This document shows positions 513-35,708 of a DNA stretch of 64,000 nt, piece by piece; position 1 is the first letter of the stretch, and the number at the start of each line of letters is the position of its first letter. The notes under the pieces are model-generated. The model was given only the letters and a program-made list of their open reading frames with translations. It was not told the origin of the DNA and ran no database searches. Origin of the DNA: a virus (Duplodnaviria; Caudoviricetes); the IMG/VR virus record IMGVR_UViG_3300033121_000943, positions 7,140-71,139 of that record; one strand, written 5' to 3'. A program made the translations under genes and the position numbers.

Positions 513-2547
513 ATTTTGATTCCATCGTGTGAGTAATACGTAGTACGTCGACTATTTCGCCTAGGCTCTTTTGAAGCGTTTCTTTCACCGGTAAGTTTCT
601 GCGTATGGCAGATATTAATTGTCTGCCGAAAGCATCCAGTGATTTAACGATGTTGCCGAAACATCGTTCTGCCGATAGCGACCCTATATGGTTCGATAAG
701 TTTTTCGGGAACCTATCCCTGCAACTTACCCTCATACTGCCGTGGTATTCGCGTGTCCTTTGGATATGCGTCATTGGGAAAGCCGTTGGAGCGATGAAGC
801 CTATGTCCGAGCTACTAACACCGTCGATAGCAGATAAGACTTTGGCCATGGCTATTAGCTCTTTCTCGTTTACGACAGGTAGCCAACTGATGCCAGCTGA
901 TTCCGGAAAAGACATGCCGAACAAGATATGTAGGGCCGAGGCACCTAATAACGGATGATACGTTGCAGCGTTCTTATCATCGCTACTTGCAATGAATGTG
1001 TAGATCACATTAGGGGCGTACTCCAAAGAGAACGAGTCGTATAGCTTATGTGTAAGCCACGGCTTGATCTCCATTGAATTGTTTTCCAACACTTTTGGCA
1101 TAGATGCCGCAGGCGTGGACAAGATGATGTGATCACCAAAGGCTTCCATGAACCGAGATAACGCCGCCAACGACGTCAGTGAACTGATTTTGTTTCTAGT
1201 CAAATACTCTCGGTTGTATACCCTGAGAATAGACACGTCTTTGTTGAACTGTGCGTTCGACGTAGTCGCACCTACCGCGTATTTTATGAGCTCTTCGTTA
1301 GACTCCTCCATACTGTCCAGTATGGCTTTCGGGAGATAGCCGTAATCATCTCGATGCTTACCGTAACACGCTGTACGTATCATCGAAACTTTGCTGACAG
1401 TGTTGTCGACTTTCTTGGGCTTACTAGCTTCGACATACGGTAGTTTTTTAGCCTCGTGCCAATCCGCCCATATCAGCTTGGCTACGGTAGGACTTAATAC
1501 AAACACGTCGGCATAGCGACCATACGAAGTCGAGTTTCGAACATTTCTACTGAAAGCCGTCTCTGACCCGCGTAGCTTCTCGTAAGTCAGATCGCTGTCG
1601 CATACGCGGACGTCGACCGTTCGCTTGTACACCTTCCAGCTAATAGCTCCGTTGAAGGCTTTTTCTCCTTGAAAAGCAGCTTTAGAGTATCGAGAGTATC
1701 GGCTGAACTTACCTAACAGGTAGTGCAGGTCCTGGCCTTTTAACGAATCTAAAACGACTTGCGGATCATAGTCTGCGTTTGGACGCATAAGACGCGACAA
1801 CTTTTGGTGTTCGTCAACATCGCTGAATCTTACAGTGCCCGGTTCGACGAGAAGGGCGTCGATCCTGTCGTTCACGGCCTTATGAGCAAAGCCTACCTTG
1901 ATATCACTGAGTGCGTTGACAGGTATCGAGTCAACGACCATGGAAGCAGATATCGTATGGCTTTCTGTAACCAGCACGAGATCCGTCATGTCGCTTTGAA
2001 ATACGGCCAACAATGTCACTTGACCAGAGGACGCGTCTCTGTTGGTCAAAACCCATAAGTCTTTTTCAACAGATGAATGTGGTGTTATTAGTTCGACCCT
2101 GACCGAACCATTGACCGATACCTCGGCGAAACTGCCGTCGTTTTTGTCTAAGAACGTCTTATCGACCAACGACGGATAGTTCATGCCGATCAGGCTTTTC
2201 AAAACTATCGCGACGGACCAATTTGTTTTCACAAGAAAATGTACGTACAGAACCTCTGTACCGTCACTGCGTATCAGCTCCATCTTGAGCTGGCCGGTCT
2301 GTATAGCGACCGCGTTGTCCAACGCGGCCATGACGTCTGAGTTACGACCGAACTTACTATAGTCGACCGATAGCAACACTCTGTGTGCTGTTATGCTTAT
2401 CTTCTTTACCACCGGAGCGGCGTAGTCTAGAAACGTCTTGAGAAACCCGACGCATTCTTTATCGAAGTCGGGTTTCTCTCGTTCAGATATAGACTTGATC
2501 GCCTTAATTAATTTACCAGAGCGATCGGTGCTCATTGTCGCTGTCAT
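475..2547 (-). CDS. large hypothetical protein (~690 aa)
   Basis: Long ORF; ATG at 2547 overlaps the upstream TGA (ATGA), so preferred over 2574; no motif recognised. Confidence 0.8.
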   Translation of the reverse strand: MTATMSTDRSGKLIKAIKSISEREKPDFDKECVGFLKTFLDYAAPVVKKISITAHRVLLSVDYSKFGRNSDVMAALDNAVAIQTGQLKMELIRSDGTEVLYVHFLVKTNWSVAIVLKSLIGMNYPSLVDKTFLDKNDGSFAEVSVNGSVRVELITPHSSVEKDLWVLTNRDASSGQVTLLAVFQSDMTDLVLVTESHTISASMVVDSIPVNALSDIKVGFAHKAVNDRIDALLVEPGTVRFSDVDEHQKLSRLMRPNADYDPQVVLDSLKGQDLHYLLGKFSRYSRYSKAAFQGEKAFNGAISWKVYKRTVDVRVCDSDLTYEKLRGSETAFSRNVRNSTSYGRYADVFVLSPTVAKLIWADWHEAKKLPYVEASKPKKVDNTVSKVSMIRTACYGKHRDDYGYLPKAILDSMEESNEELIKYAVGATTSNAQFNKDVSILRVYNREYLTRNKISSLTSLAALSRFMEAFGDHIILSTPAASMPKVLENNSMEIKPWLTHKLYDSFSLEYAPNVIYTFIASSDDKNAATYHPLLGASALHILFGMSFPESAGISWLPVVNEKELIAMAKVLSAIDGVSSSDIGFIAPTAFPMTHIQRTREYHGSMRVSCRDRFPKNLSNHIGSLSAERCFGNIVKSLDAFGRQLISAIRRNLPVKETLQKSLGEIVDVLRITHTMESKYGSIYGGENRNS

Positions 2548-3239
2548 TCTCTCTTTCTTTCGGCTTTCAGCCAACGAAGTTTATCACCCAAGCATAAACG
2601 ACAGGTCTCACACGACAGCTTGTCGTGATTGATCTCTTTGCCGGGCTTACGTTCAACAGGGCACACAACGGTGCCACCTGTCCATCTATTAACTACATCG
2701 TGTCTTACAACTCGAAACACTAGATCCACCACGTAATCCGGCGAGTCATTGTTATCGATCGCCATGTACGCCCTACCGACCCTACGATGAGTAGGTGGTC
2801 GCCCTGTGTCTTTATCACAGGAAAACCACGCACTCACATTTGGGCAGTCGATTAGTTCGTACAGATTGTCGAGGAGTTGACTCTTTCGCCATGATCTCGT
2901 GTAGAAGTAGAACCGCGTGTCAGGGTTCTCGTCAGCTATCTGGATCCATTTGTAGATGTAGCTGTTACTGTCGAAGTCGCCGCTTACGTGAATCCGTAAT
3001 GTCTTGATCGAATTCGCGGCTATCTCATCTGTAATGAGACTTACAAAGTTTCGCTGCTTCCTGGCAGCGTCTCGTTCGACTAGAGCATCCGTCACCGACG
3101 GATAAGCGTAGAAACCTTTCTTAGCGTAGCATGCATCAGCACATGCTTTCGTTTTGCCGGGGCAGGTTTTCCCGGCCGGGATCGAGAAGTGCCAGATGTT
3201 ATGTCCGAGCTTCCTGTTCCCCCGAATCAACAAAGCCAT
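2544..3239 (-). CDS. phage Gp88-like Cys-cluster (radical-SAM-like) protein
   Basis: FSIPAGKTCPGKTKACADACYAKKG, RIHVSGDF, FYFYTRSW and C-terminal CP...CETCRLC resemble the GP88 family. Confidence 0.65.
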   Translation of the reverse strand: MALLIRGNRKLGHNIWHFSIPAGKTCPGKTKACADACYAKKGFYAYPSVTDALVERDAARKQRNFVSLITDEIAANSIKTLRIHVSGDFDSNSYIYKWIQIADENPDTRFYFYTRSWRKSQLLDNLYELIDCPNVSAWFSCDKDTGRPPTHRRVGRAYMAIDNNDSPDYVVDLVFRVVRHDVVNRWTGGTVVCPVERKPGKEINHDKLSCETCRLCLGDKLRWLKAERKRE

Positions 3240-3798
3240 CAATGAATACCTTTTCCATCAATTCCTCCGTAGCGTCTTCACATGCGATTTTCGTTATTTC
3301 GTTCTCGTACAGAACTTTGGTCTTACGGATAGCGACCGTAATGTGAAAACTAAGTGTTTTGTCGCCCTTCTTTGGAAGAGCAGGCAATCCGTAGCTCTTA
3401 CGGAGCATTTCCAGCTCCGGAGACTTTACCGTTAGAAACCATACCTTCGATACGCCGTCCCAACTAAGTGGACGTACTTCTCTGAGTTCTCCGACCTGAT
3501 ACTTAAAGATCCTGCCGGTCTCTGTAATATTTTTGGCGCCGATCTTATCGACTTCCTCTCTCCGCATCACGCTGATGTGTGCATTAAAGGAGCCATCCGT
3601 GTGCCGAGGCAACTCGATGCCCGGAACGTGTAACGCCGCGAAAAAACCATGTACTACGGAATTAGGTACTTCCAGTAACAGCCAGCCGCTCTTGGATAGT
3701 ACAAGACGACCAGACAGGGCGTATACGGGAATTGCATCATGGTATTCCGCATTTTTAGTGCGGATTTTTGTTTCATCGTGATAGCCACAATTACTCAT
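3199..3798 (-). CDS. 2H phosphoesterase family protein
   Basis: Two H-x-[S/T]-hydrophobic motifs (AHISV, FHITV); present start probably the ATG at 3798 inside the TnpB element end. Confidence 0.75.
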   Translation of the reverse strand: MSNCGYHDETKIRTKNAEYHDAIPVYALSGRLVLSKSGWLLLEVPNSVVHGFFAALHVPGIELPRHTDGSFNAHISVMRREEVDKIGAKNITETGRIFKYQVGELREVRPLSWDGVSKVWFLTVKSPELEMLRKSYGLPALPKKGDKTLSFHITVAIRKTKVLYENEITKIACEDATEELMEKVFIDGFVDSGEQEART

Positions 3799-3900
3799 GG
3801 TCTTATACCACTCCACAAACGTTTTGAGTCTCCCAGTACCCCTGGGCGACATTTCGTAAATTACAGGCTGCATTGAAATCTCGATCGTGTTCCGAGTCGC
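3721..3900 (-). ncRNA. putative TnpB omegaRNA scaffold plus guide (5' limit approximate)
   Basis: tnpB 3' end reads GTGGAG..TAAGACC..GGC..GATGAAACAAAAATCC, then hairpin TCCGCA-N7-TGCGGA (3746-3764), the usual layout of IS605 right ends. Confidence 0.55.
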
Positions 3901-4930
3901 AATTACCACACACCCATCGCTCCTCTAGTTTCAGCTCTTTGTTGACTTTCTCACAGACATGGCACGTTTTGGATGACGGATAAAACTTGTCTGCTTTCAC
4001 TAAGAGTCGACCGTACCAAGCAGTCTTGTAGGTTAGCATTTCAAGAAAACAACCTAAACCAGCATCGGCGATGCTTTTAGCAAAAGATGTCTTCATCAAA
4101 CCGTTCAACGACAAACTCTCCACACCAATCACTTGGTTCTCGTTAATTAGTTTTCGAGAAAGTTTATGCTGAAAATCTTTCCTCCGATTAACTATCTTCT
4201 CTGTTAATCGTGATATTTTATTTTTTACCTTTAACCTATTACTAGAGCCTTTCGCTTTTCTAGCAAGCAAACGCTGAAGTCTAGCTAACTTTCTAGCGTT
4301 TTTACGCAACCATCGTGGATTACTGATATGTTCTCCTGTACTGAGAGTGGCGAAATGTCGTAAACCAACGTCTACACCTACCACTGTCTCAATCTGTGGT
4401 AACGGTACAAAATCTCTCTCGCACACGATCGTTACGAACCACTTACCACTGGGTGATTGTTTGATTCTAGCTGTTTTAATACGACCGATCTGTGGCTGAC
4501 TTTCAACAAATCTTACCCACCCTATTTTCGGCAATTTAATAGTATTGCCGTCTATACGGACATTTTCTTTGTATCCAAAAGAAAGAGGTGTTGATTTTTT
4601 AGACTTAAATTTCGGATAACCGTGTTTTCTACCACTCTTGTTCTTACACCAAGCAAAAAACCTATTGAACGCTTGCGAAAGGTTCTTTGCGGACTCCTGT
4701 AAGCAATGCGTGTATGAGTCCGCTAACCACGGAAACTCTTGTTTGATGTTAGTGATCAACCTGTTGAGTCCGAACGGTGACAGATCCATCTGAACGCCAC
4801 ATTGTTTAGCTTTCGACGCTCTTGACAACAATTCGTTGTAAACAAACCTAGTGTGTCCGCTGAACATCAAGAACATACGTACTTGGTCGGATGTTGGCTT
4901 TAATAAGTACTTGTAGGTTATTGCTGTCAT
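3803..4930 (-). CDS. tnpB: RNA-guided endonuclease TnpB
   Basis: N-terminal TYKYLLKPT..G..RFVYN HTH; RuvC VGVDVG / VESL / DRDFNAA acidic triad intact; CHVC..CGNC zinc ribbon. Confidence 0.95.
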   Translation of the reverse strand: MTAITYKYLLKPTSDQVRMFLMFSGHTRFVYNELLSRASKAKQCGVQMDLSPFGLNRLITNIKQEFPWLADSYTHCLQESAKNLSQAFNRFFAWCKNKSGRKHGYPKFKSKKSTPLSFGYKENVRIDGNTIKLPKIGWVRFVESQPQIGRIKTARIKQSPSGKWFVTIVCERDFVPLPQIETVVGVDVGLRHFATLSTGEHISNPRWLRKNARKLARLQRLLARKAKGSSNRLKVKNKISRLTEKIVNRRKDFQHKLSRKLINENQVIGVESLSLNGLMKTSFAKSIADAGLGCFLEMLTYKTAWYGRLLVKADKFYPSSKTCHVCEKVNKELKLEERWVCGNCDSEHDRDFNAACNLRNVAQGYWETQNVCGVV

Positions 4931-4937
4931 CAACAAT

Positions 4938-4943
4938 ACTATA
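4938..4943 (-). promoter_or_regulatory. possible -10 box (TATAGT) for a leaderless tnpB transcript
   Basis: TATAGT ends 7 nt before the ATG at 4930; no SD sequence; -35 poor. Confidence 0.3.
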
Positions 4944-4972
4944 TTCAGACGGGGTTAAAAAAAGAAAAAACA

Positions 4973-5701
4973 TCATCCGACATGGCAGCTATCTCGTTCA
5001 AGAATAAAGTTTCGGTTTCGCATGTCCGATTGGTTCATATGATGACTACAGCCCACGAAATCGTGAGCTGTATATTGGTGATTCAAATGACCTACCAAGC
5101 TTGGTGTGTGGAAATACACCGGAACGTCGAAACGCTCCAGCGATACACCAATGGACCCTGCTGTGTTCATGCCCATTGAGCTTAACTCGGGCAAGTACGC
5201 TCCGCATAATGTAAGAGCGTGTCGCGAGAATATTAAACAATGGTTGGCTACCCATGAACCATTTACCTTCGACGGGCACCACCCGAAACTGTCGTCACCG
5301 CAATTAGGTCTTACGACATATTCGTCAGGGAAAACCCTGTAAGGAGTGTAAGGCGACCAGATAGCTACGATGGATCTATCGATCGTATTTTCGCAGTAAA
5401 CCGGGAGCTGTTCCCAGCACCTGATGTCGGGCCTTACGAATAAGAAAAGCTCTGTCTGAGCCGCGTATCCGTCGCTCATGGTACGGATAGCCGATCGCCA
5501 CATCGAGTAGTCGTCGTGCCAAGACTTGTCCTGATGCACTACGATATCGCGTTGTTTATTAATCTTAGCTTTTGGCGATCCAAACACATGAATGGCGTCG
5601 AAACCCATATGTCGCAACTGACGAACCATCTGGTCGGCAGCTGACTTACTCTCCGTAGAGTCTACAAGAATAGCAACCTTCCAATGGTCTCTTACGCTCA
5701 T
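4973..5701 (-). CDS. hypothetical protein, possibly a degenerate GT-A glycosyltransferase
   Basis: VYFHTPSLVGH resembles the PSLVQH motif; the DxD position reads RPD. Confidence 0.4.
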   Translation of the reverse strand: MSVRDHWKVAILVDSTESKSAADQMVRQLRHMGFDAIHVFGSPKAKINKQRDIVVHQDKSWHDDYSMWRSAIRTMSDGYAAQTELFLFVRPDIRCWEQLPVYCENTIDRSIVAIWSPYTPYRVFPDEYVVRPNCGDDSFGWCPSKVNGSWVANHCLIFSRHALTLCGAYLPELSSMGMNTAGSIGVSLERFDVPVYFHTPSLVGHLNHQYTAHDFVGCSHHMNQSDMRNRNFILERDSCHVG

Positions 5702-24338: not shown

Positions 24339-27300
24339 TTACGCGTTTTGTGGGAACAACATAGCACCTGTGGCTATGTCGTAGATTTGCTTGAATTTCT
24401 TGTGCAAATATGTGCCGTTTTGCTTTCTCCAGCCAACCAATGCTGGATCGAGTCCGTACGGTAAGAATTTATCTGGCGTAGGAATCTCAGACCAAGATGT
24501 CTGAATATCCGTCGAGCTGTTGAAGTAATACTTCTTATTACTTACACGGTCACCATCCAGATCGGTTGCGATTAGAGGTACTTGATCGATCAAGCACTTA
24601 CGAAACACACCTTCCTTAGGATCAATTACATGCATTAATTCGTAATGCGGTACCGCAAGCATCACGGCGTCGTGAATCTGTAAGACGATCTTAAAGTCCA
24701 TTTTTGATTGAATGCGGTACTTGTAAAGATTAGCGATCGCCAGTGTCATGGCGTCGGCCACACCGCCTTGAATCGGTGCGTTCATCGCTTCGCGTTCTTG
24801 CTTCTTAATGTCTTGTCGCTCTTCCGTATAGAAGAAGCGACGTCGACGACCGAACATATTACAAAGCCATCCTGGGTTTGTTACACGGCTCGCACACTGA
24901 GCCAGGAATGGCCTAATACCTTCGTACGTCTGAAAGACGTTTTGCTGCAGTCTGGATGCGTCATCGGCTGTAATAAACGTGCCGCTTGCCCTCAGCAACG
25001 TTGCACATGCCTCTGGCGACTGACCATACGCTAGCCCGAAGATAACCGCTTTCGCGGCAGTACGTAGTGCGATCTTCCCGATGTCATCCAGGCCTGTCTT
25101 CGTTGGAGGACAGTCCAGGTTGAATGCGGTGACTGCTAGGTTGGCGTGGATGTCGAAATAATTCGGATCATCCTCGTCCAATCCAGATCGCTGGCAATGG
25201 TCGATCATTGTGTAATCTTGAGCCATTGTCGCGAGCATCATTAACTCGGCGCCGCTGTAGTCTGCTTCGACAAGAAACCATCCCGGTTCCACAGTGAAGA
25301 TGCTGCGGATCGATCTGGTGTACTTCTCTCCGATAATACGTCTGTAATCGGATTCGCGGCTCTTACTGAGATTCTGCAGTGCAGGGTCTCGACTTTTCCA
25401 TCTCCCTGTTTCGGTTACCTGCGTAATGTGCGTACGGCAGTAACCGTCATCGGACATGTACTCTGTGACGCCGTCCGAGTAAACGAGATTTCCATCCTCA
25501 TCGTAAACTTCGTTATCGTCGTCGTCTGTCAACGGTTCCCGAAGGATACCTTGAACAGCTTTAGCTAAGAACTTGTAGTCGAGAATATCACGAAGAACCT
25601 TGCTGTGGTCACGTGGCTCGTCAGAGACTTCGCCGTCAGCGTTGACCACTTCCGTAATTACCTGATCCTTCAGGTAAAACAACTCCAACAAGCTTTGTTT
25701 ACCTGCTGAAGGTGTAATCTCCATTTCTTGTGGTGTACCACGAACCGTTTCCCACGGCACCGGATACTTACCTGTAGATCTTAGAGGCACGATGTGAAGA
25801 CACATCGCACCTTCGGGCCTACAGCGTTTCACGGAACCGTACTGCTGGTAGTAACCGTTGTACTTCTCGCCGAACATCGCTTCTGCGATATGGAAACGAT
25901 TCTGAGGATTAAAGTCCGGCCAGTTAAACTGCTCTCGTAACGACGTTAGCAATTCTGCTTTCCGATCGCTGAAAAGCTTAGCTACTTGGTCTACGCCTTT
26001 TCGATCGACAAGCAAACCGGTTCTATTAATCTCCAAGACAGCCGGTGCCGCTTGGTGTGAGATCCAGTAAGCTTTCCAACATGGTTTTCCGTAGCGATCA
26101 CCGTCCAAGCCTTCTTCCCAAAAGTAATTGGCCAGTCTTAGTTCGCCAGCGGCGTCCCATGCGCCGTAAGGATACAGTGCCTCATCGCTGATCCATCCGT
26201 ATCCGATATCTAGATCTTTTCGTGCCTCTATGGCTTCTTTGATCTCGTCGTTCTTCGCCAGTAGATCATACTCGCCGAAAAATCTTAGGCGTTCTTTGGT
26301 TAATTTACCGCCGTCGTCGAGCGTTTTCTTAGCTCGTAAGTACCTAGCCTTTTCTTTAAGCAGGTCGGCCGCTCTTCTTTGAATAGCTTTGCGTTGCTCG
26401 GCTTTCATCGCGTTGAAAGAGCTTACGTAATTAGGCACGTTCGTATGGATAGCGAGTTGCTCGTCCAGACCGAATCGTGCCGTTTCGTCTATGGCGTGAG
26501 CGGCTAACTCGAGAGCTAGTCCACCACTATGCTTACAATCCTCCGGTGTCGCCGCTGGTGCGTACTCGTCTCGTAAGTCCAAGCCGTAATAGGTGAACCA
26601 TTCCAAGTCAGCGTTAAAAAAGTGTCCGGCAGCCCTAAGGCCCTGCATGAATTTCTTACACAGTCTAGCGGCTACGCGGGTACCGTTCTTCGTACTGTAA
26701 GAGCCATCGCTGGTTTTATAAGAGAACCTCGGACTTCCGCCTTTGTGCGTAAGTGCAATCACTACGGCCGAATCAGGTCTGTACGAAAACTGAATGCAAC
26801 GTAAGTACGCTTTACTGTCTTGCGGGTGTCTACCCTGCCATTCGGCGTCCCACGCCACTATCTTGTTCTTACAGTTCTTACGCATCAGCTTTAGATGGTG
26901 GACCAGCTGATCTACTGTGTCGACAACGTAGTATTTAAGCCCTCGATCCATGCCGACAACGCCTACCGTTTCGACATCCGAGTCAGTTGGGTCTAGCTCG
27001 GCTACTATCTCACCATTCGCCTTAGCATGTTCTTCAGGGTCATAACACTTGTGGAGAAACGTCATATTGTTGATAAGGCGTTTTTCCTCACTTGTCATAC
27101 CACCGGATAGTGCTTTGACTGCTGTTACACCCAGACGTCCACGTGCCGCGATCACGGCACTAGGGCTTATGGTGCAAACGATCTTCGCCGTAAATCCAGA
27201 CGGAGGCGATACCGCAGATATGCGTGTGTCGAAGTACTTCTCGACCACCTCGCCTTCGTATTTACCTAAGGTTGCCGACTTACCGAGAATGGCCTTAACA

Positions 27301-27839
27301 ACGTCGGCGCCCTGCAAAACTATGAACTTAGGCCTAACCAGAAGGATCTCCTGGTAAAGCAAGTATCTTTGCTGCTCGATCCATGTCGACTGTAAGCCAG
27401 CTTTGCTAGGGTCTAGCGACGTACTTTTCAATAGCGACGTGACATAGACCTTTGAATCTATCTCCCCGTCGAACCCTGCTCTTATAAACGCGTGCCTCAG
27501 AATCTTCTCGTCATCTCGCGAGAATAATTTCTGTGCACCCATATCGTAGGCCGTCGGACATTTACCGATGACCATAATGTCAGCCTTAACAGGGCCGTGC
27601 GTCTTGATACGAGAGTCCAGCATACGACCGGTTAGTGTCGACAAAGTTACCATGCGACCGGATTTATTAACCGGTAGCCTTAGCAGTCTGTTGCCGTAAC
27701 CATACAAGATGTTGGACGTTAACTTACTTAACGAAATGCCTACACTCGCGGCATTAGCAAGTAGATCGGCGTGAGGCTCTGGCAACCCCGGAGCACCATG
27801 CGGATACACTTTTCTAGCCGACAAGTTTTGTAGAGACAT
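24339..27839 (-). CDS. polA: family A DNA polymerase with N-terminal UDG-like domain and 3'-5' exonuclease
   Basis: IMVIGKCP...RPKFIVLQG (UDG fold); WDAEWQG, YGAWDA (exo); EADYSGAEL, RTAAKAVIFGLAYG, LQIHDA (motifs A, B, C). Confidence 0.95.
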   Translation of the reverse strand: MSLQNLSARKVYPHGAPGLPEPHADLLANAASVGISLSKLTSNILYGYGNRLLRLPVNKSGRMVTLSTLTGRMLDSRIKTHGPVKADIMVIGKCPTAYDMGAQKLFSRDDEKILRHAFIRAGFDGEIDSKVYVTSLLKSTSLDPSKAGLQSTWIEQQRYLLYQEILLVRPKFIVLQGADVVKAILGKSATLGKYEGEVVEKYFDTRISAVSPPSGFTAKIVCTISPSAVIAARGRLGVTAVKALSGGMTSEEKRLINNMTFLHKCYDPEEHAKANGEIVAELDPTDSDVETVGVVGMDRGLKYYVVDTVDQLVHHLKLMRKNCKNKIVAWDAEWQGRHPQDSKAYLRCIQFSYRPDSAVVIALTHKGGSPRFSYKTSDGSYSTKNGTRVAARLCKKFMQGLRAAGHFFNADLEWFTYYGLDLRDEYAPAATPEDCKHSGGLALELAAHAIDETARFGLDEQLAIHTNVPNYVSSFNAMKAEQRKAIQRRAADLLKEKARYLRAKKTLDDGGKLTKERLRFFGEYDLLAKNDEIKEAIEARKDLDIGYGWISDEALYPYGAWDAAGELRLANYFWEEGLDGDRYGKPCWKAYWISHQAAPAVLEINRTGLLVDRKGVDQVAKLFSDRKAELLTSLREQFNWPDFNPQNRFHIAEAMFGEKYNGYYQQYGSVKRCRPEGAMCLHIVPLRSTGKYPVPWETVRGTPQEMEITPSAGKQSLLELFYLKDQVITEVVNADGEVSDEPRDHSKVLRDILDYKFLAKAVQGILREPLTDDDDNEVYDEDGNLVYSDGVTEYMSDDGYCRTHITQVTETGRWKSRDPALQNLSKSRESDYRRIIGEKYTRSIRSIFTVEPGWFLVEADYSGAELMMLATMAQDYTMIDHCQRSGLDEDDPNYFDIHANLAVTAFNLDCPPTKTGLDDIGKIALRTAAKAVIFGLAYGQSPEACATLLRASGTFITADDASRLQQNVFQTYEGIRPFLAQCASRVTNPGWLCNMFGRRRRFFYTEERQDIKKQEREAMNAPIQGGVADAMTLAIANLYKYRIQSKMDFKIVLQIHDAVMLAVPHYELMHVIDPKEGVFRKCLIDQVPLIATDLDGDRVSNKKYYFNSSTDIQTSWSEIPTPDKFLPYGLDPALVGWRKQNGTYLHKKFKQIYDIATGAMLFPQNA

Positions 27840-28947
27840 AGACACCAGCCTTTCTCGCCGTCTTGTAGATGCACGCCCAGATGAAATCTCTATCAAGCGA
27901 ACCCGGATCCGTAAACGACGGTAAATAAACCGGCAAAATCGGACACGTTAAATGACTCATTAACGTTTTGTACGCCTTGGTCATGTGATGCTCTAGCCCC
28001 TTCTTTTTCGACGTCTCGTCTTGGGCAGGGTCTAGCAATAACACGATTGCGGATCGTACTCGCTTATCTCGCGAACCGATTACACTTCGTAAAATGTCGC
28101 ACTTACGTTTCTGCAGCGTCTTACCTAGAACAGCTACCGCATTCAGACCTACCGACCAAGCGTCGCCAGGGCCCTCAGTTATTACGATAGTTTCGTAATT
28201 CTGAGCATGCTCGATGCCGTACAAGAAGTTACCGATAGTTCCGTAAGAGTGCTTCCACTTTGGACCGCTCTCACCGGAATCCTCTAGTCGTCTAGCTGTC
28301 CAAGCTGCGAGCTTTACTTCGCCATCGAAGTCAGCGTATATCGGTGCCAGAAGCCTATCAGTCATATCAGATGCCGTTGACCGACCCAGAGACACGTGAT
28401 GGATATCATAGTGCTCCGCGAGATATGCTGGATCGTAACCTCTCGCTAAACACCAATGTATTAGCTTGTGGTCGCGGTCAGTCCTGAGTATGTCCGTAAG
28501 CGGTCTGACGAGCCCAGGAAACTCGATCGGCAGCATTTCCTCTTCTACGGCTTCCTCGCCCACCATGTCTGCGTCGACCGGTACATCGCCGCCGTTATAG
28601 ACCATGTCGTACAGTTCCTTACGGTTTTCGAAATCCGTAAGACACTCTTCGTTAAAGCAGTGTGCCAACCACAGGGTCAGTCTCTTCGTAGCAACGCTTC
28701 GCGTTCCCCATAGATGGTTTATGTACAACCGCTGTTTAGTGTCCGAACAGAACGGACAGTTGATGCGGTACTCTTCGCCCGTGGAAGAACCTTTCTTAAC
28801 CAGCTTATAGCTGCCACCAGTCGTCGTCATAGCGAACTGGCCAGTCTGACCGGGCTTCTCTATGTGGACGGCGTGGTTTCCGAATACTTCACGCAACCGT
28901 GATACTAATCGGTTGTTTACGTACTTACGCGAAGCTTTGATGCTCAT
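27814..28947 (-). CDS. DnaG-type DNA primase
   Basis: CPFC..HCFNEEC zinc finger; TOPRIM ITEGPGDAWSV and LLDP. Confidence 0.9.
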   Translation of the reverse strand: MSIKASRKYVNNRLVSRLREVFGNHAVHIEKPGQTGQFAMTTTGGSYKLVKKGSSTGEEYRINCPFCSDTKQRLYINHLWGTRSVATKRLTLWLAHCFNEECLTDFENRKELYDMVYNGGDVPVDADMVGEEAVEEEMLPIEFPGLVRPLTDILRTDRDHKLIHWCLARGYDPAYLAEHYDIHHVSLGRSTASDMTDRLLAPIYADFDGEVKLAAWTARRLEDSGESGPKWKHSYGTIGNFLYGIEHAQNYETIVITEGPGDAWSVGLNAVAVLGKTLQKRKCDILRSVIGSRDKRVRSAIVLLLDPAQDETSKKKGLEHHMTKAYKTLMSHLTCPILPVYLPSFTDPGSLDRDFIWACIYKTARKAGVYVSTKLVG

Positions 28948-32663: not shown

Positions 32664-33697
32664 TAGAATCCCTTTTTCTTCAAACCGTATAACATGTCGT
32701 CCATACCCAGATCTGTCATCAAAACGTTGTTGACAATCTCGGCCAAATAAAACATGGCTTTTTTCACCGGATCATCCCACGGGTCGTAATAATCGCTCTC
32801 GTAATTTACCGCGTTCTTGAGCAGTACGAAGCTCTTTATTCGACTAGGATCTCTTGGGTGATCTTCGGTCTCTACGTAAGTAGCGAGCTCATTATAAATC
32901 TCTTCAAGGTCAGGAAAACTACCGTCTTCCGATGCCTCCGACATCAACATGATTTTCGACGCGATACCAAGAGGGACCGGCATCGGAGGATCGTCAGTTA
33001 ACGCGTGCGTATAATAGCCGTAGGCCAGATTTCTCACGCGATCTAGTGACAAGAAAATCAGTCCAAGACGTATCTTGTCGGCCTCGTTTTTTACCATGTA
33101 CTCACAAGCCTGTACGCCGTTGCTCGCCACGCTCAAATAACGTACTACGTCTATAGGGTCGATGCTGTTCGCTAGCTCGAGTTGACTGAAGCATTCCACA
33201 GCGTACGATTCCGTAAGAGTACGAGATAGCGGGGATCGTACTTCCGTAAAATTGGTAGCGAGCATTGTCACATGCGGAGTATCCGCGAAGCTCGGCATAA
33301 CAGTAGTTTTTTCTCGCATATCGCTCGGAATCGTTGCTATGAGCCTATACGCGTTCTGCGGATTCTCGACCGAAACAACGATTTTCACCCTAGAAGATCC
33401 CGTGATTAAATCCATCGCGTGATCTCTTCTCTCTATGTTGACAGCGTCGCGAACCATCACGCCTTCTGACGTGTTTTCAAATACCCTTGCTTTCAGTTGC
33501 CACGTGTCGTCGCCAGTCAACTCTTGATAGATGACACATTGGTCGTACTTGTGGACCGGCTTCGCAGATTCCTTACCGAGAATCTTGCCCAAGATCGAGT
33601 GAATGACCGACAACGGATAAAGCACGATGGTGCGTAATAACAATTCCTTGTCTCCCTGTTGCTTTGAGCTCTGACGACAATCGTTCAAACACATCAA
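32663..33697 (-). CDS. hypothetical protein, start uncertain
   Basis: 344-aa ORF; 5' part overlaps the SbcC-like C-terminus. Confidence 0.7.
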   Translation of the reverse strand: MMCLNDCRQSSKQQGDKELLLRTIVLYPLSVIHSILGKILGKESAKPVHKYDQCVIYQELTGDDTWQLKARVFENTSEGVMVRDAVNIERRDHAMDLITGSSRVKIVVSVENPQNAYRLIATIPSDMREKTTVMPSFADTPHVTMLATNFTEVRSPLSRTLTESYAVECFSQLELANSIDPIDVVRYLSVASNGVQACEYMVKNEADKIRLGLIFLSLDRVRNLAYGYYTHALTDDPPMPVPLGIASKIMLMSEASEDGSFPDLEEIYNELATYVETEDHPRDPSRIKSFVLLKNAVNYESDYYDPWDDPVKKAMFYLAEIVNNVLMTDLGMDDMLYGLKKKGF

Positions 33698-35708
33698 CTG
33701 CCTGCATTACACGCTCTTCATCGAGGTGAGCTGTCGGCTCATCTAAACAGAAGAACGGTAGTCTACCGACGAACACCGCCGATCTGCCTAACCAAAAACT
33801 AATAGCCAATGCTACCTGCTGACCTACCGACAGTCTTGCCGCTTGCTCGATAGACCCGTCCCTGTGTATGGCGTTGAATGAGAAATTCTCTGGATCAACT
33901 TCCACAGTAAACGGTGCGTTAAAATCTCTTAAGAGATCGTTTACCTTGTCTGTAGTCTGACTCAACGTTCCAGCTATGATTCTAGCCGGTAGCCTATCGC
34001 GATGCAGAATGTTTCGCAGCGTACTGGCGTAGTTTGCGAAGTCTCTTACACGCTTAGTCTTGATACCTACTTCTCTAACTTGCCAAAGCGACGTTAACGT
34101 AGCTCTTAGCGAATTAGTTGCCGAGTTGTATAGGTCTCTAACGTCCTTTAACGCTGCCAGATCGGTCTCGTGCGTGGCCAAGAGTTCCTTAGCCAACTTG
34201 ACCGATCCGCCTTTCCCACTGATTGCTTCGAGTCGTTTTTTATTCTTCTCGATCGTTTCTCGAGTCATAGCAATGTTGACCTCGATCGACGTAATTTCGT
34301 GGCTAAGGTTTGTACACGCATCAGTAGCTGCCTTAAGCCTAGCTTCGGCGTTACGTAAGTTGGATCGAGTTTCCGTCTCTTCCTCTTCTACGTCATGACC
34401 TAGCAGGTACTCCTCTCCGTACGGCGCCGATTTGATCTGATCGATCGCTGCTTGAGCCAGCTTACGTTCCAACATTAACTTGTCCAAGGAGCTCTCGTAA
34501 CGCGACCAGATAGCTGTTGCTTCCATAAGCTCATTGAAACGTAAGCGGGCGTCGCTCAGGGATATCTTCGCAGCCAGCTTCTGTTCGCGTAATTGCTCGA
34601 CTCTCTTAGCTATCTCTTCCGCGTTGTCAAATGCTCGCCCGCAAGAAGCACAGACGGTCTCCTCTTCGATCTGCCCCTCGGTTATTTTCAAGCAGTTCAC
34701 GATAGTTAACTTAAGCGACGCCAATTCGTCAGGGTCCGCCTTCGGCACCGGTGGTTCTTGCGGTAGCTCAGCAGATAAAGTCCTCAAGTGCTTGTTTACG
34801 ATTTCCCTCGAAGGAAACGATCGCATGGCGTCGTAACGACTTCTACTTAACTCGTGAATCTCGCGGTACTCGTTTACGTCGGTTTGCGCCTCGTCTACGG
34901 CATCTTCGGCGTGTTTCAGTTTGCTTTTCTTAAATGCCAAAGCTGTTTCGCATTCCTCGAGCCGACTGGTGTCTTCGGCGATGTCTTTCGATAGAGACTT
35001 ACAGTCCTCTGCTCGGCTAACTATTGCCTTAAGCTCTTGAACTCGAAAATCAGGTAACACGGTCGCAGATACTTCGTGCATCTGTTTTCTGTAGTCACGC
35101 CGGTTTTTCTTCTTCGATCTCCACTCTGCGACCAGTCTGTCGTGTAGGTCTGACTGATACGTGGAGATGATGCCTTTATCCATCGTGACTTGATCACGTA
35201 GGACTCGGTCGAGTTTTTCCAATACATCAAGACCGCAAAGCGATTGGAACATAGCAGCACGATCTGCTTTACCGCCGGAGATAATGTTCTGTAAGGCGTT
35301 CTGTGACGCAAACAAGAACTCGTTAATAGTGGCCGCTGTGGTACCGAGAAGCTCCAAAGCTTTTTCCGTAATTACGGTTTCTTTGCCTTTAGCGACTTCT
35401 TTGTTGTTGAGCGTTAACGAGCTACTTCCGCCCTGCAAAACACGGCGAACCACCATAGTACCCGACGTCACTTCCCATGTTGTTTCAATGTAAGAAAGAT
35501 CACCTTGCGGAGTACCTCGTCTGATATTCGATTCTTTGGCGCCAGGAACAGACGAGAAGTCGTTCGTTACCGACAATCGTGCCATATTCATTAAGTTGGA
35601 CTTACCAACGCCGTTCGATCCGCAAATCACTGTAAGACCGAGTGGAAACTCAACTGTCTTATTCTCATACTGGCATACGTTCACTAACTTCACTTTGCAC
35701 AATCGCAT
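33573..35708 (-). CDS. SbcC/Rad50/gp46-like SMC ATPase
   Basis: GSNGVGKSN, coiled coil with CASC hook, LSVGQ signature, LDEPTAHLD, ITH. Confidence 0.92.
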   Translation of the reverse strand: MRLCKVKLVNVCQYENKTVEFPLGLTVICGSNGVGKSNLMNMARLSVTNDFSSVPGAKESNIRRGTPQGDLSYIETTWEVTSGTMVVRRVLQGGSSSLTLNNKEVAKGKETVITEKALELLGTTAATINEFLFASQNALQNIISGGKADRAAMFQSLCGLDVLEKLDRVLRDQVTMDKGIISTYQSDLHDRLVAEWRSKKKNRRDYRKQMHEVSATVLPDFRVQELKAIVSRAEDCKSLSKDIAEDTSRLEECETALAFKKSKLKHAEDAVDEAQTDVNEYREIHELSRSRYDAMRSFPSREIVNKHLRTLSAELPQEPPVPKADPDELASLKLTIVNCLKITEGQIEEETVCASCGRAFDNAEEIAKRVEQLREQKLAAKISLSDARLRFNELMEATAIWSRYESSLDKLMLERKLAQAAIDQIKSAPYGEEYLLGHDVEEEETETRSNLRNAEARLKAATDACTNLSHEITSIEVNIAMTRETIEKNKKRLEAISGKGGSVKLAKELLATHETDLAALKDVRDLYNSATNSLRATLTSLWQVREVGIKTKRVRDFANYASTLRNILHRDRLPARIIAGTLSQTTDKVNDLLRDFNAPFTVEVDPENFSFNAIHRDGSIEQAARLSVGQQVALAISFWLGRSAVFVGRLPFFCLDEPTAHLDEERVMQAVDVFERLSSELKATGRQGIVITHHRALSVVGHSLDLGQDSR

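Follow-up and report, generated by a model that had tools for sequence, protein, structure and literature searches.

A solo tnpB cassette in the first codons of a 2H phosphoesterase gene of large wastewater phages: a candidate RNA-guided homing element

TnpB is the ancestor of Cas12. To our knowledge, its natural role has been demonstrated only as the retention of a transposon after excision by TnpA and, recently, as a plasmid drive. Here a viral tnpB gene is described, located in a 64-kb stretch of DNA (hereafter the window) of the 71-kb IMG/VR virus record IMGVR_UViG_3300033121_000943. The gene lies in a 1,236-bp insert (4970..3735; coordinates of the element and of its genes are read on the minus strand) that follows codon 4 of a gene for a 2H-SAK phosphoesterase, and the source is part of a large phage, the record being judged only about 35% complete at 71 kb. 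A TnpA-independent gene drive by TnpB has been demonstrated in plasmids (PMC11870625), homing into co-infecting phages has been proposed as a theoretical possibility ('transposon non-restorative homing'; PMC13565253), and tnpB genes of phages have been noted without a resolved role (bioRxiv 10.64898/2026.02.14.705889). No demonstration of TnpB homing between phages was found in the literature searched. The comparisons reported below make it probable, if far from certain, that the cassette spreads by TnpA-independent RNA-guided homing between co-infecting phages.

The closest solved relative of the encoded protein is ISDra2 TnpB (8BF8/8EXA/8H1J; E 5e-70, residues 10-371 aligned), and three Pfam families were recognized above their curated cut-offs (OrfB_IS605, PF01385, 6e-29; Cas12f1-like_TNB, PF07282, 2e-19; HTH_OrfB_IS605, PF12323, 4e-8). 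In the alignment, the catalytic residues corresponding to D191, E278 and D361 of ISDra2 are kept in the motifs GVDVG, VES and HDRD, and the zinc finger CxxC...CxxC is kept as CHVC...CGNC. The locus therefore shares with the IS200/IS605 element ISDra2 of Deinococcus radiodurans (PMC8612924) the same domains, the RuvC D-E-D triad, the zinc finger, a guide RNA that overlaps the 3' end of the gene and reads into the flank, and residue Q80, which contacts position -1 of the transposon-associated motif (TAM). Unlike ISDra2, it has no tnpA and no left-end hairpin, resides in a phage, carries changes at the other TAM-contact residues and a C-terminus shorter by about 10-30 residues, is bordered by a 6-bp repeat, and would use the TAM CGGAT rather than TTGAT. 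A nuclease-dead domesticated TnpB of the TldR regulator type is ruled out by the intact triad, which is retained in the intact tnpB of every occupied contig.

The element is not an autonomous IS605/IS200 transposon, as it lacks both a Y1 TnpA and a left-end hairpin. In the 71-kb record, about 35% complete, neither a Y1 (HUH) TnpA (PF01797; controls were positive) nor a serine recombinase (PF00239) was found; the left end has no subterminal hairpin (DNA fold z -0.13), and a hairpin is present at the right end (z -2.7). On the minus strand, the left junction reads GCC ATG TCG GAT GAT G|TTTTTTC, with the original ATG at 4983..4981, and the right junction reads GAATACC ATGATG|CAATTCCCG, with the hexamer at 3740..3735. 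An earlier note on this DNA, made from the sequence alone, had described these junctions, a TnpB with its RuvC acidic residues, about 40 nt of left end and the lack of tnpA, and all of its statements about the sequence hold. The parts of the locus are those of a known family, an ISDra2-like TnpB in an IS1341-style solo element. The IS607/RAGATH-18 family is ruled out (no PF00239 in the record, RAGATH-18 below threshold, a scaffold that overlaps the open reading frame, and a match to ISFba1, 8IAZ, far weaker than that to ISDra2), and so is an IStron or a group I or II intron, since Rfam gave no hit to an intron family in 3500..5200 up to E = 10 and the border bases are unfit.

A guide-RNA (omegaRNA) scaffold is predicted at the right end. 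When the window was aligned with four relatives (only five sequences in all), 23 of the 40 predicted pairs showed compensatory changes; the single-sequence fold gave a z of -1.7. The match to RAGATH-18 at 3819..3765 (32.8 bits, E 2e-4) falls below the gathering score of 44.9 and is taken here as a resemblance only; none of the relatives gave a match to that family. In the relatives, 6-8 nt that end in TCAA separate the terminal hairpin from unrelated flank.

The earlier note had also joined the two junctions of the insert into a hypothetical empty site, CATGTCGGATGATGCAATTCCCG (MSDDAIPVY...), and this allele exists in nature: three contigs (L022, L023 and L024) read CATGTCGGATGATGCAATTCCCGTATACGCCCTG, exactly the predicted string. 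The uninterrupted site was found in 20 contigs from independent wastewater assemblies (JGI, Logan and ENA); besides these three, 16 of the fetched contigs carry variants of it. Among the fetched alleles with a readable junction, CATGTCGGATGA is kept in 24/24 (4 occupied and 20 empty, including one duplicate contig). In the empty contigs the 2H gene encodes 182 aa (MSDDA[I/V]PVY...) and has an 11-nt overlap with the upstream stop; the same overlap is present in the ENA contig L004, retrieved by a protein search with the upstream gene (flanks 89-92% identical), whose junction reads CATGTCGGATGATG|CCGTTCC. The 90% cluster of the 2H protein comprises six 182-aa variants and one 199-aa form, and their contigs yielded 18 more empty alleles. 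Neither a different junction nor a native MSNCGYH N-terminus, both of which were looked for in relatives, was encountered. The exact empty-site string was absent from IMG/VR, and the exact 27-nt right-end string from IMG/VR and the JGI metagenome contigs.

When Logan contigs were compared with the window, contigs of two further studies (runs X8 and X9, the contig of the latter being L019) skipped exactly 1,236 nt. The empty contig of run X8 is identical to the occupied haplotype of L005 and run X1 over 865 aligned flank nucleotides, including all 17 single-nucleotide polymorphisms of the flanks and a C at the variable base of the hexamer (ATGAYG); it is their isogenic empty partner. Short tnpB pieces from runs X9 and X13 run into unlike sequence, belong to TnpB genes of other organisms, and are uninformative here.

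Two cassette haplotypes were distinguished, W (the window) and X (L005, L006, L007 and run X1), with 11 differing sites in addition to the length of a T-run at the left end; in tnpB, six of the differences are synonymous and two non-synonymous. Haplotype X occurs in two backgrounds. Between L005 and L007 the upstream DNA is 91.6% identical (92/1098 mismatches), as against 99.9% for the cassette (1/1242; Fisher p 4e-30). Identity rises to 99% in the last 100 nt upstream, and downstream the differences begin at target positions 6, 22 and 24. Upstream, beyond about 100 nt from the junction, L007 resembles the empty type of L025/L026; downstream, at target positions 22 and 24, it does so once more, and the stretch between looks like the donor. 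As the true parents are outside the sample, a donor-like tract of this extent (at most 100 nt on the left and at most 22 nt on the right) is only a hint of a break 15-22 nt from the motif, the distance at which cuts by TnpB have been reported (PMC8612924, PMC11061315). A tree of the upstream gene shows the occupied alleles interspersed with empty ones (weak branch support, 3 label changes). On these comparisons an ancient, vertically inherited insert is excluded, and an exchange of the cassette by recombination is demonstrated at the level of sequence; that the nuclease drives this exchange would be a further step. The features by which a homing element is recognized in sequences are nevertheless present, i.e. 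element-free alleles bearing the target in close relatives, and an element far more alike than its flanks.

Further information came from the hexamer ATGAYG, which borders the insert as a direct repeat. Both copies have T in haplotype W and both have C in haplotype X (L005, L006, L007 and X1), a covariation seen across two cassette haplotypes, while the empty alleles have a single copy, with T in 7 contigs and with C in 13; the difference (GAT/GAC) is synonymous. The only target-like sequence in the window is the right junction, which differs from the target by CC in place of GG. For a nuclease that leaves its own genome uncut, the motif has to include the GG and the guide has to begin inside the hexamer. 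Our best guess is a TAM of about CGGAT followed by GAYGCAATTCCCG. This self/non-self logic favours a guess of the earlier note, a guide starting with GATG and a TAM ending in GGAT. The alternative of a TAM confined to the hexamer and followed by the guide was rejected, as it would make the occupied right junction a perfect target for its own nuclease. CGGAT shares GAT with the TTGAT of ISDra2, which would fit the conserved contact of Q80 to position -1.

The predicted TAM and guide of the window match the empty alleles L022-L024 perfectly. In this arrangement the recipient's target would start with the left copy of the hexamer and the guide with the right copy, so that the direct repeat may be an overlap of guide and target rather than a duplication, and seed matching would equalize the two copies at each homing event. 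A single mutation of the guide would presumably suffice to open the C-type alleles to invasion. As to the origin of the repeat, one possibility is ectopic repair via GATG microhomology, by which the truncation of the left end would be accounted for as well. Six natural classes of empty allele were distinguished (hexamer base/downstream sequence): T/CAATTCCCG, T/CAATTCCTG, C/CAATTCCTG, C/CGATTCCCG, C/CAGTT... and the type of L004. With all relatives considered, the polymorphism of the 24-nt target ranks in the top 2-3% of the 24-nt windows of the 1.9-kb region, and in the top 13% in the closest set; this suggests escape alleles, but is also expected of a variable N-terminus.

The mechanism that we propose runs from cleavage, TAM and guide start to repair by copying and use of a new start codon, all of them predicted steps. 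A stranded tnpB/guide-RNA cassette of the IS200/IS605 type (ISDra2-like, IS1341-style), having lost its transposase and left-end hairpin, would be homing in large wastewater phages. It would be transcribed along with the surrounding minus-strand genes, and TnpB would bind the scaffold formed by its own 3' end and the right end of the element, the 3' tail of the RNA, derived from the 2H gene (about GAYGCAATTCCCGTATAC), acting as the guide. In a co-infected cell, the complex would recognize CGGAT and the matching sequence in an uninterrupted relative, and would cut about 15-22 nt further on. The break would be repaired from the occupied genome, whereby the 1,236-bp cassette would be copied in, while the occupied genome itself would be spared, as its right junction has CCAT, not GGAT, before the same sequence. 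The earlier note had assigned the repair to RecA/SbcCD-like functions of the phage; an SbcC-like ATPase is indeed encoded at 33573..35708, but RecA (PF00154) was not found in the record. Its wider proposal of a free-standing homing unit gains from the near-identical cassette in diverged backgrounds, the matched empty and occupied pairs and the guide matching empty alleles; cleavage is a prediction, and the matched pairs may reflect either direction of transfer (gain by homing or precise loss).

The locus can be compared with several described systems. Like IS1341-type solo elements and the plasmid drive, it has tnpB only, its guide records the insertion site, element-free copies of the same replicon are its predicted targets, and repair of the cut would copy it into them; it differs in residing in a natural population of lytic-type phages and in the population-genomic rather than experimental nature of the evidence. 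Its left end, unlike that of IS1341-type elements, has decayed, and transposition is probably no longer possible. With the free-standing homing endonucleases of T-even phages (Seg, Mob), it has in common a nuclease gene between conserved phage genes, presence or absence at one site in close relatives, and an apparent short co-conversion of the flanks. In contrast to Seg and Mob, recognition would be by an RNA guide and a short motif rather than by protein, and the insert interrupts the target gene itself, so that self/non-self discrimination rests on the insert. What is new here is the exact natural empty site in many contigs, the isogenic pair, the presence of one cassette in diverged backgrounds, and a covarying hexamer that narrows motif and guide. 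With two cassette haplotypes, six classes of empty allele offering perfect and mismatched targets, the isogenic pair, and a two-base difference between self and non-self, the locus is a compact natural test case.

Several points weigh against RNA-guided homing. Cleavage, guide RNA and expression are predictions, the cassette is known at one site only, and the covariation of the hexamer involves no more than two haplotypes. One cassette could also have reached diverged backgrounds by general recombination between phages, so that near-identity proves exchange and not a drive by the nuclease. The isogenic X8/L005 pair is more simply explained by precise loss, since the marker at target position 6 is kept, and perfect-match empty alleles persist in nature, so that any drive must be incomplete. 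The inferred TAM is G-rich, unlike the TTGAT of ISDra2, and several TAM-contact residues differ (K76T, F77H, T123Y, N124K). Finally, the 6-bp border repeat is foreign to IS200/IS605 insertion.

The strongest alternative is a passive passenger. According to this explanation, which we regard as rather unlikely, a single old insertion with an idle but intact tnpB is moved by homologous recombination and deleted precisely by slippage at the 6-bp repeats, which yields the matched empty alleles. The flanks are indeed mosaic throughout (between the window and L005, the GP88 gene is 95% and the 2H gene 98.7% identical), the X8/L005 pair retains even its position 6 marker, the direct repeats are a suitable substrate for slippage, and on its well-supported branches the tree of the upstream gene leaves a single origin possible. 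An idle gene, however, does not account for tnpB, catalytic residues and scaffold being intact in all the occupied contigs, with a 6:2 synonymous excess, nor for an identity of 99.9% in the cassette against about 91% in the DNA 100-1100 nt upstream. In addition, the covariation of the hexamer would have no cause (the probability of its arising by chance is roughly 0.3-1%), and the target is among the 2-3% most polymorphic windows.

Alternatively, TnpB could be a weapon of competition, cutting insert-free relatives and excluding them from co-infected cells, so that the cassette benefits its phage and copying is incidental. The same anatomy and the same matches between guide and target would be expected in this case as in homing, and a dual action of this kind is known from the homing nucleases of T-even phages (reviewed in PMC13565253). 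Since the cassette has entered diverged backgrounds, competition without copying appears improbable, although the two readings do not exclude each other. That the cassette is an ordinary IS200/IS605 element mobilized in trans by a host TnpA, the empty alleles being donor joints left by a scarless excision that regenerates TAM and flank (PMC10055086), is very improbable, because, in spite of the right-end hairpin, the left end has none, no Y1 or serine transposase is present in the 71-kb record, the element occurs at one site only, and a 6-bp border repeat is unexpected from peel-and-paste transposition.

A bolder form of RNA-guided homing may be put forward as a possibility, which we hold only tentatively, namely a self-reprogramming RNA-guided phage gene drive. 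With a guide beginning inside the hexamer, each homing event would check the first target bases of the recipient, producing the T/T and C/C covariation, and where bases of the recipient are kept beside the right end, the guide would be rewritten so as to follow synonymous escape alleles. One and the same RNA stretch would act as scaffold, start codon and N-terminal coding sequence, with translation of the 2H gene coupled to termination of tnpB.

The insertion need not have inactivated the gene in which it sits. As the earlier note had pointed out, the right end is an open frame as well as a scaffold, with an in-frame ATG (3798..3796). This ATG lies 4 nt past the tnpB stop (TAA, 3805..3803) and inside a predicted stem of the guide RNA; gene callers begin the 2H gene at this ATG in every occupied contig (199 aa). 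The 2H protein starting there is longer by 17 residues, as 20 new residues replace MSD. The N-terminus of the homologues varies freely in length and sequence, conservation starting only at D-P-x-x-x-Y-A-L-S-G. ATG 3798 aligns with a conserved scaffold stem of the relatives, and would therefore have been co-opted rather than newly evolved. Genes of the neighbourhood are without Shine-Dalgarno motifs, and given the 4-nt gap, termination-reinitiation would be the likeliest route of 2H translation. We infer that ATG 3798 is used in translation; a transcript processed into guide RNA cannot serve as 2H messenger RNA, and the two uses would therefore compete. A transposon end co-opted as start codon and leader peptide would let a selfish element sit in a gene without destroying it. 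IStrons and IS607 elements with group I introns (PMC10690162) likewise limit the damage of landing in a gene and have one RNA stretch in two competing roles; here, unlike in IStrons, there is no intron, the borders do not follow the U/G splice-site rules, and rescue would come from the right-end start codon, not from splicing.

The features of the locus are collected in Table 1.

Table 1. Coordinates of the features of the tnpB locus in the window and of tnpB in its relatives
Feature	Position	Strand	Remarks
242-aa upstream phage gene	4973..5701	-	No Pfam family; stop TGA 4975..4973 inside the old 2H start region
Orphaned original 2H start (ATG TCG GAT GAT G)	4971..4983	-	Holds the inferred TAM CGGAT (4979..4975) and the left hexamer ATGATG (4976..4971)
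Degenerate left end	4931..4970	-	40 nt, T-rich; T-run (length allele-variable), then AACCCC...
tnpB	3803..4930	-	375 aa; ISDra2-like RNA-guided nuclease by sequence; RuvC D-E-D and zinc finger intact
Guide-RNA (omegaRNA) scaffold, predicted	3739..3925	-	Overlaps the tnpB 3' end, extends to the right end
Terminal hairpin	3764..3746	-	Within the scaffold; then AUACCAU, then GAUG
Right hexamer copy	3735..3740	-	ATGATG in the window, ATGACG in the other haplotype; covaries with the left copy
Inferred 20-nt guide GATGCAATTCCCGTATACGC	3719..3738	-	From phage DNA beyond the right end
2H-SAK phosphoesterase gene, occupied form	3199..3798	-	199 aa; PF22547; first 20 codons are element DNA
GP88-family gene	2544..3242	-	Downstream; conserved synteny marker in all alleles
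tnpB of relatives	L008 3001-4224; L009 3001-4158; L010 999-2162; L011 3001-4125		Solo genes

The four nearest TnpB relatives examined (L008-L011, 51-57% identical) lie in phage-like contigs as solo tnpB genes, in the same direction as their phage-like neighbours (SSB, dNMP kinase, GP88, N6/N4 methylase, PolA, ParB), and look like a phage-resident TnpB lineage; a scan of IMG/VR gave no close TnpB relatives. The right end finishes in TCAA in L008-L010, that of L011 not being delimited. In L008 and L009 (55-57% identical) a CCCC...GGGG hairpin is present at the left end (z -2.7 in L009). No second copy of tnpB or of the scaffold was found in the 71-kb record, and hence no other insertion by which to fix the borders of the element. 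The T-run at the left end (4957-4970, minus strand) reads 6T-C-7T in the window and 10 to 12 T-C-5T in L005-L007, a difference due to homopolymer slippage among otherwise near-identical cassettes. A scan of the locus for promoters and terminators gave nothing beyond chance. Together with the TTTTTGTTT that follows it on the plus strand, the terminal hairpin of the guide RNA (3746-3764) scores as intrinsic-terminator-like, and could be a stop for antisense transcription into tnpB.

The phage DNA was found almost only in wastewater metagenomes, from about ten studies. The locus sits in a long co-directional run of minus-strand genes, in the order 242-aa gene, insert, 2H-SAK phosphoesterase gene and GP88-family gene. 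Homologues of the 242-aa protein are 98% (P0001) and 43-52% identical. In the GenBank phage collection nothing matched the region, the 2H protein or the 242-aa protein at the DNA or protein level, and in IMG/VR the flanking genes were matched only by the distant relatives L001 and L002 (46-50% aa identity), by which the junction is not settled. In two of the empty contigs (L024:1-275 and L030:1-344), similarity to the 242-aa gene is lost about 240-270 nt upstream of the junction and a short opposite-strand open reading frame is present instead, reflecting either a rearranged relative or an assembly chimera. A different insert is present at the same gene junction in L002 (6705-9078; 46% aa identity), where a 326-aa gene lies between the 240-aa and 2H genes, and the boundary between the two genes may be a recurrent landing site; the 2H protein of L002 has a long C-terminal extension (473 aa). 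Elsewhere in the window, the minus strand of 24339-27896 encodes a 1,185-aa protein in which a uracil-DNA-glycosylase-superfamily domain (residues 100-253) is joined to a family A DNA polymerase (806-1091).

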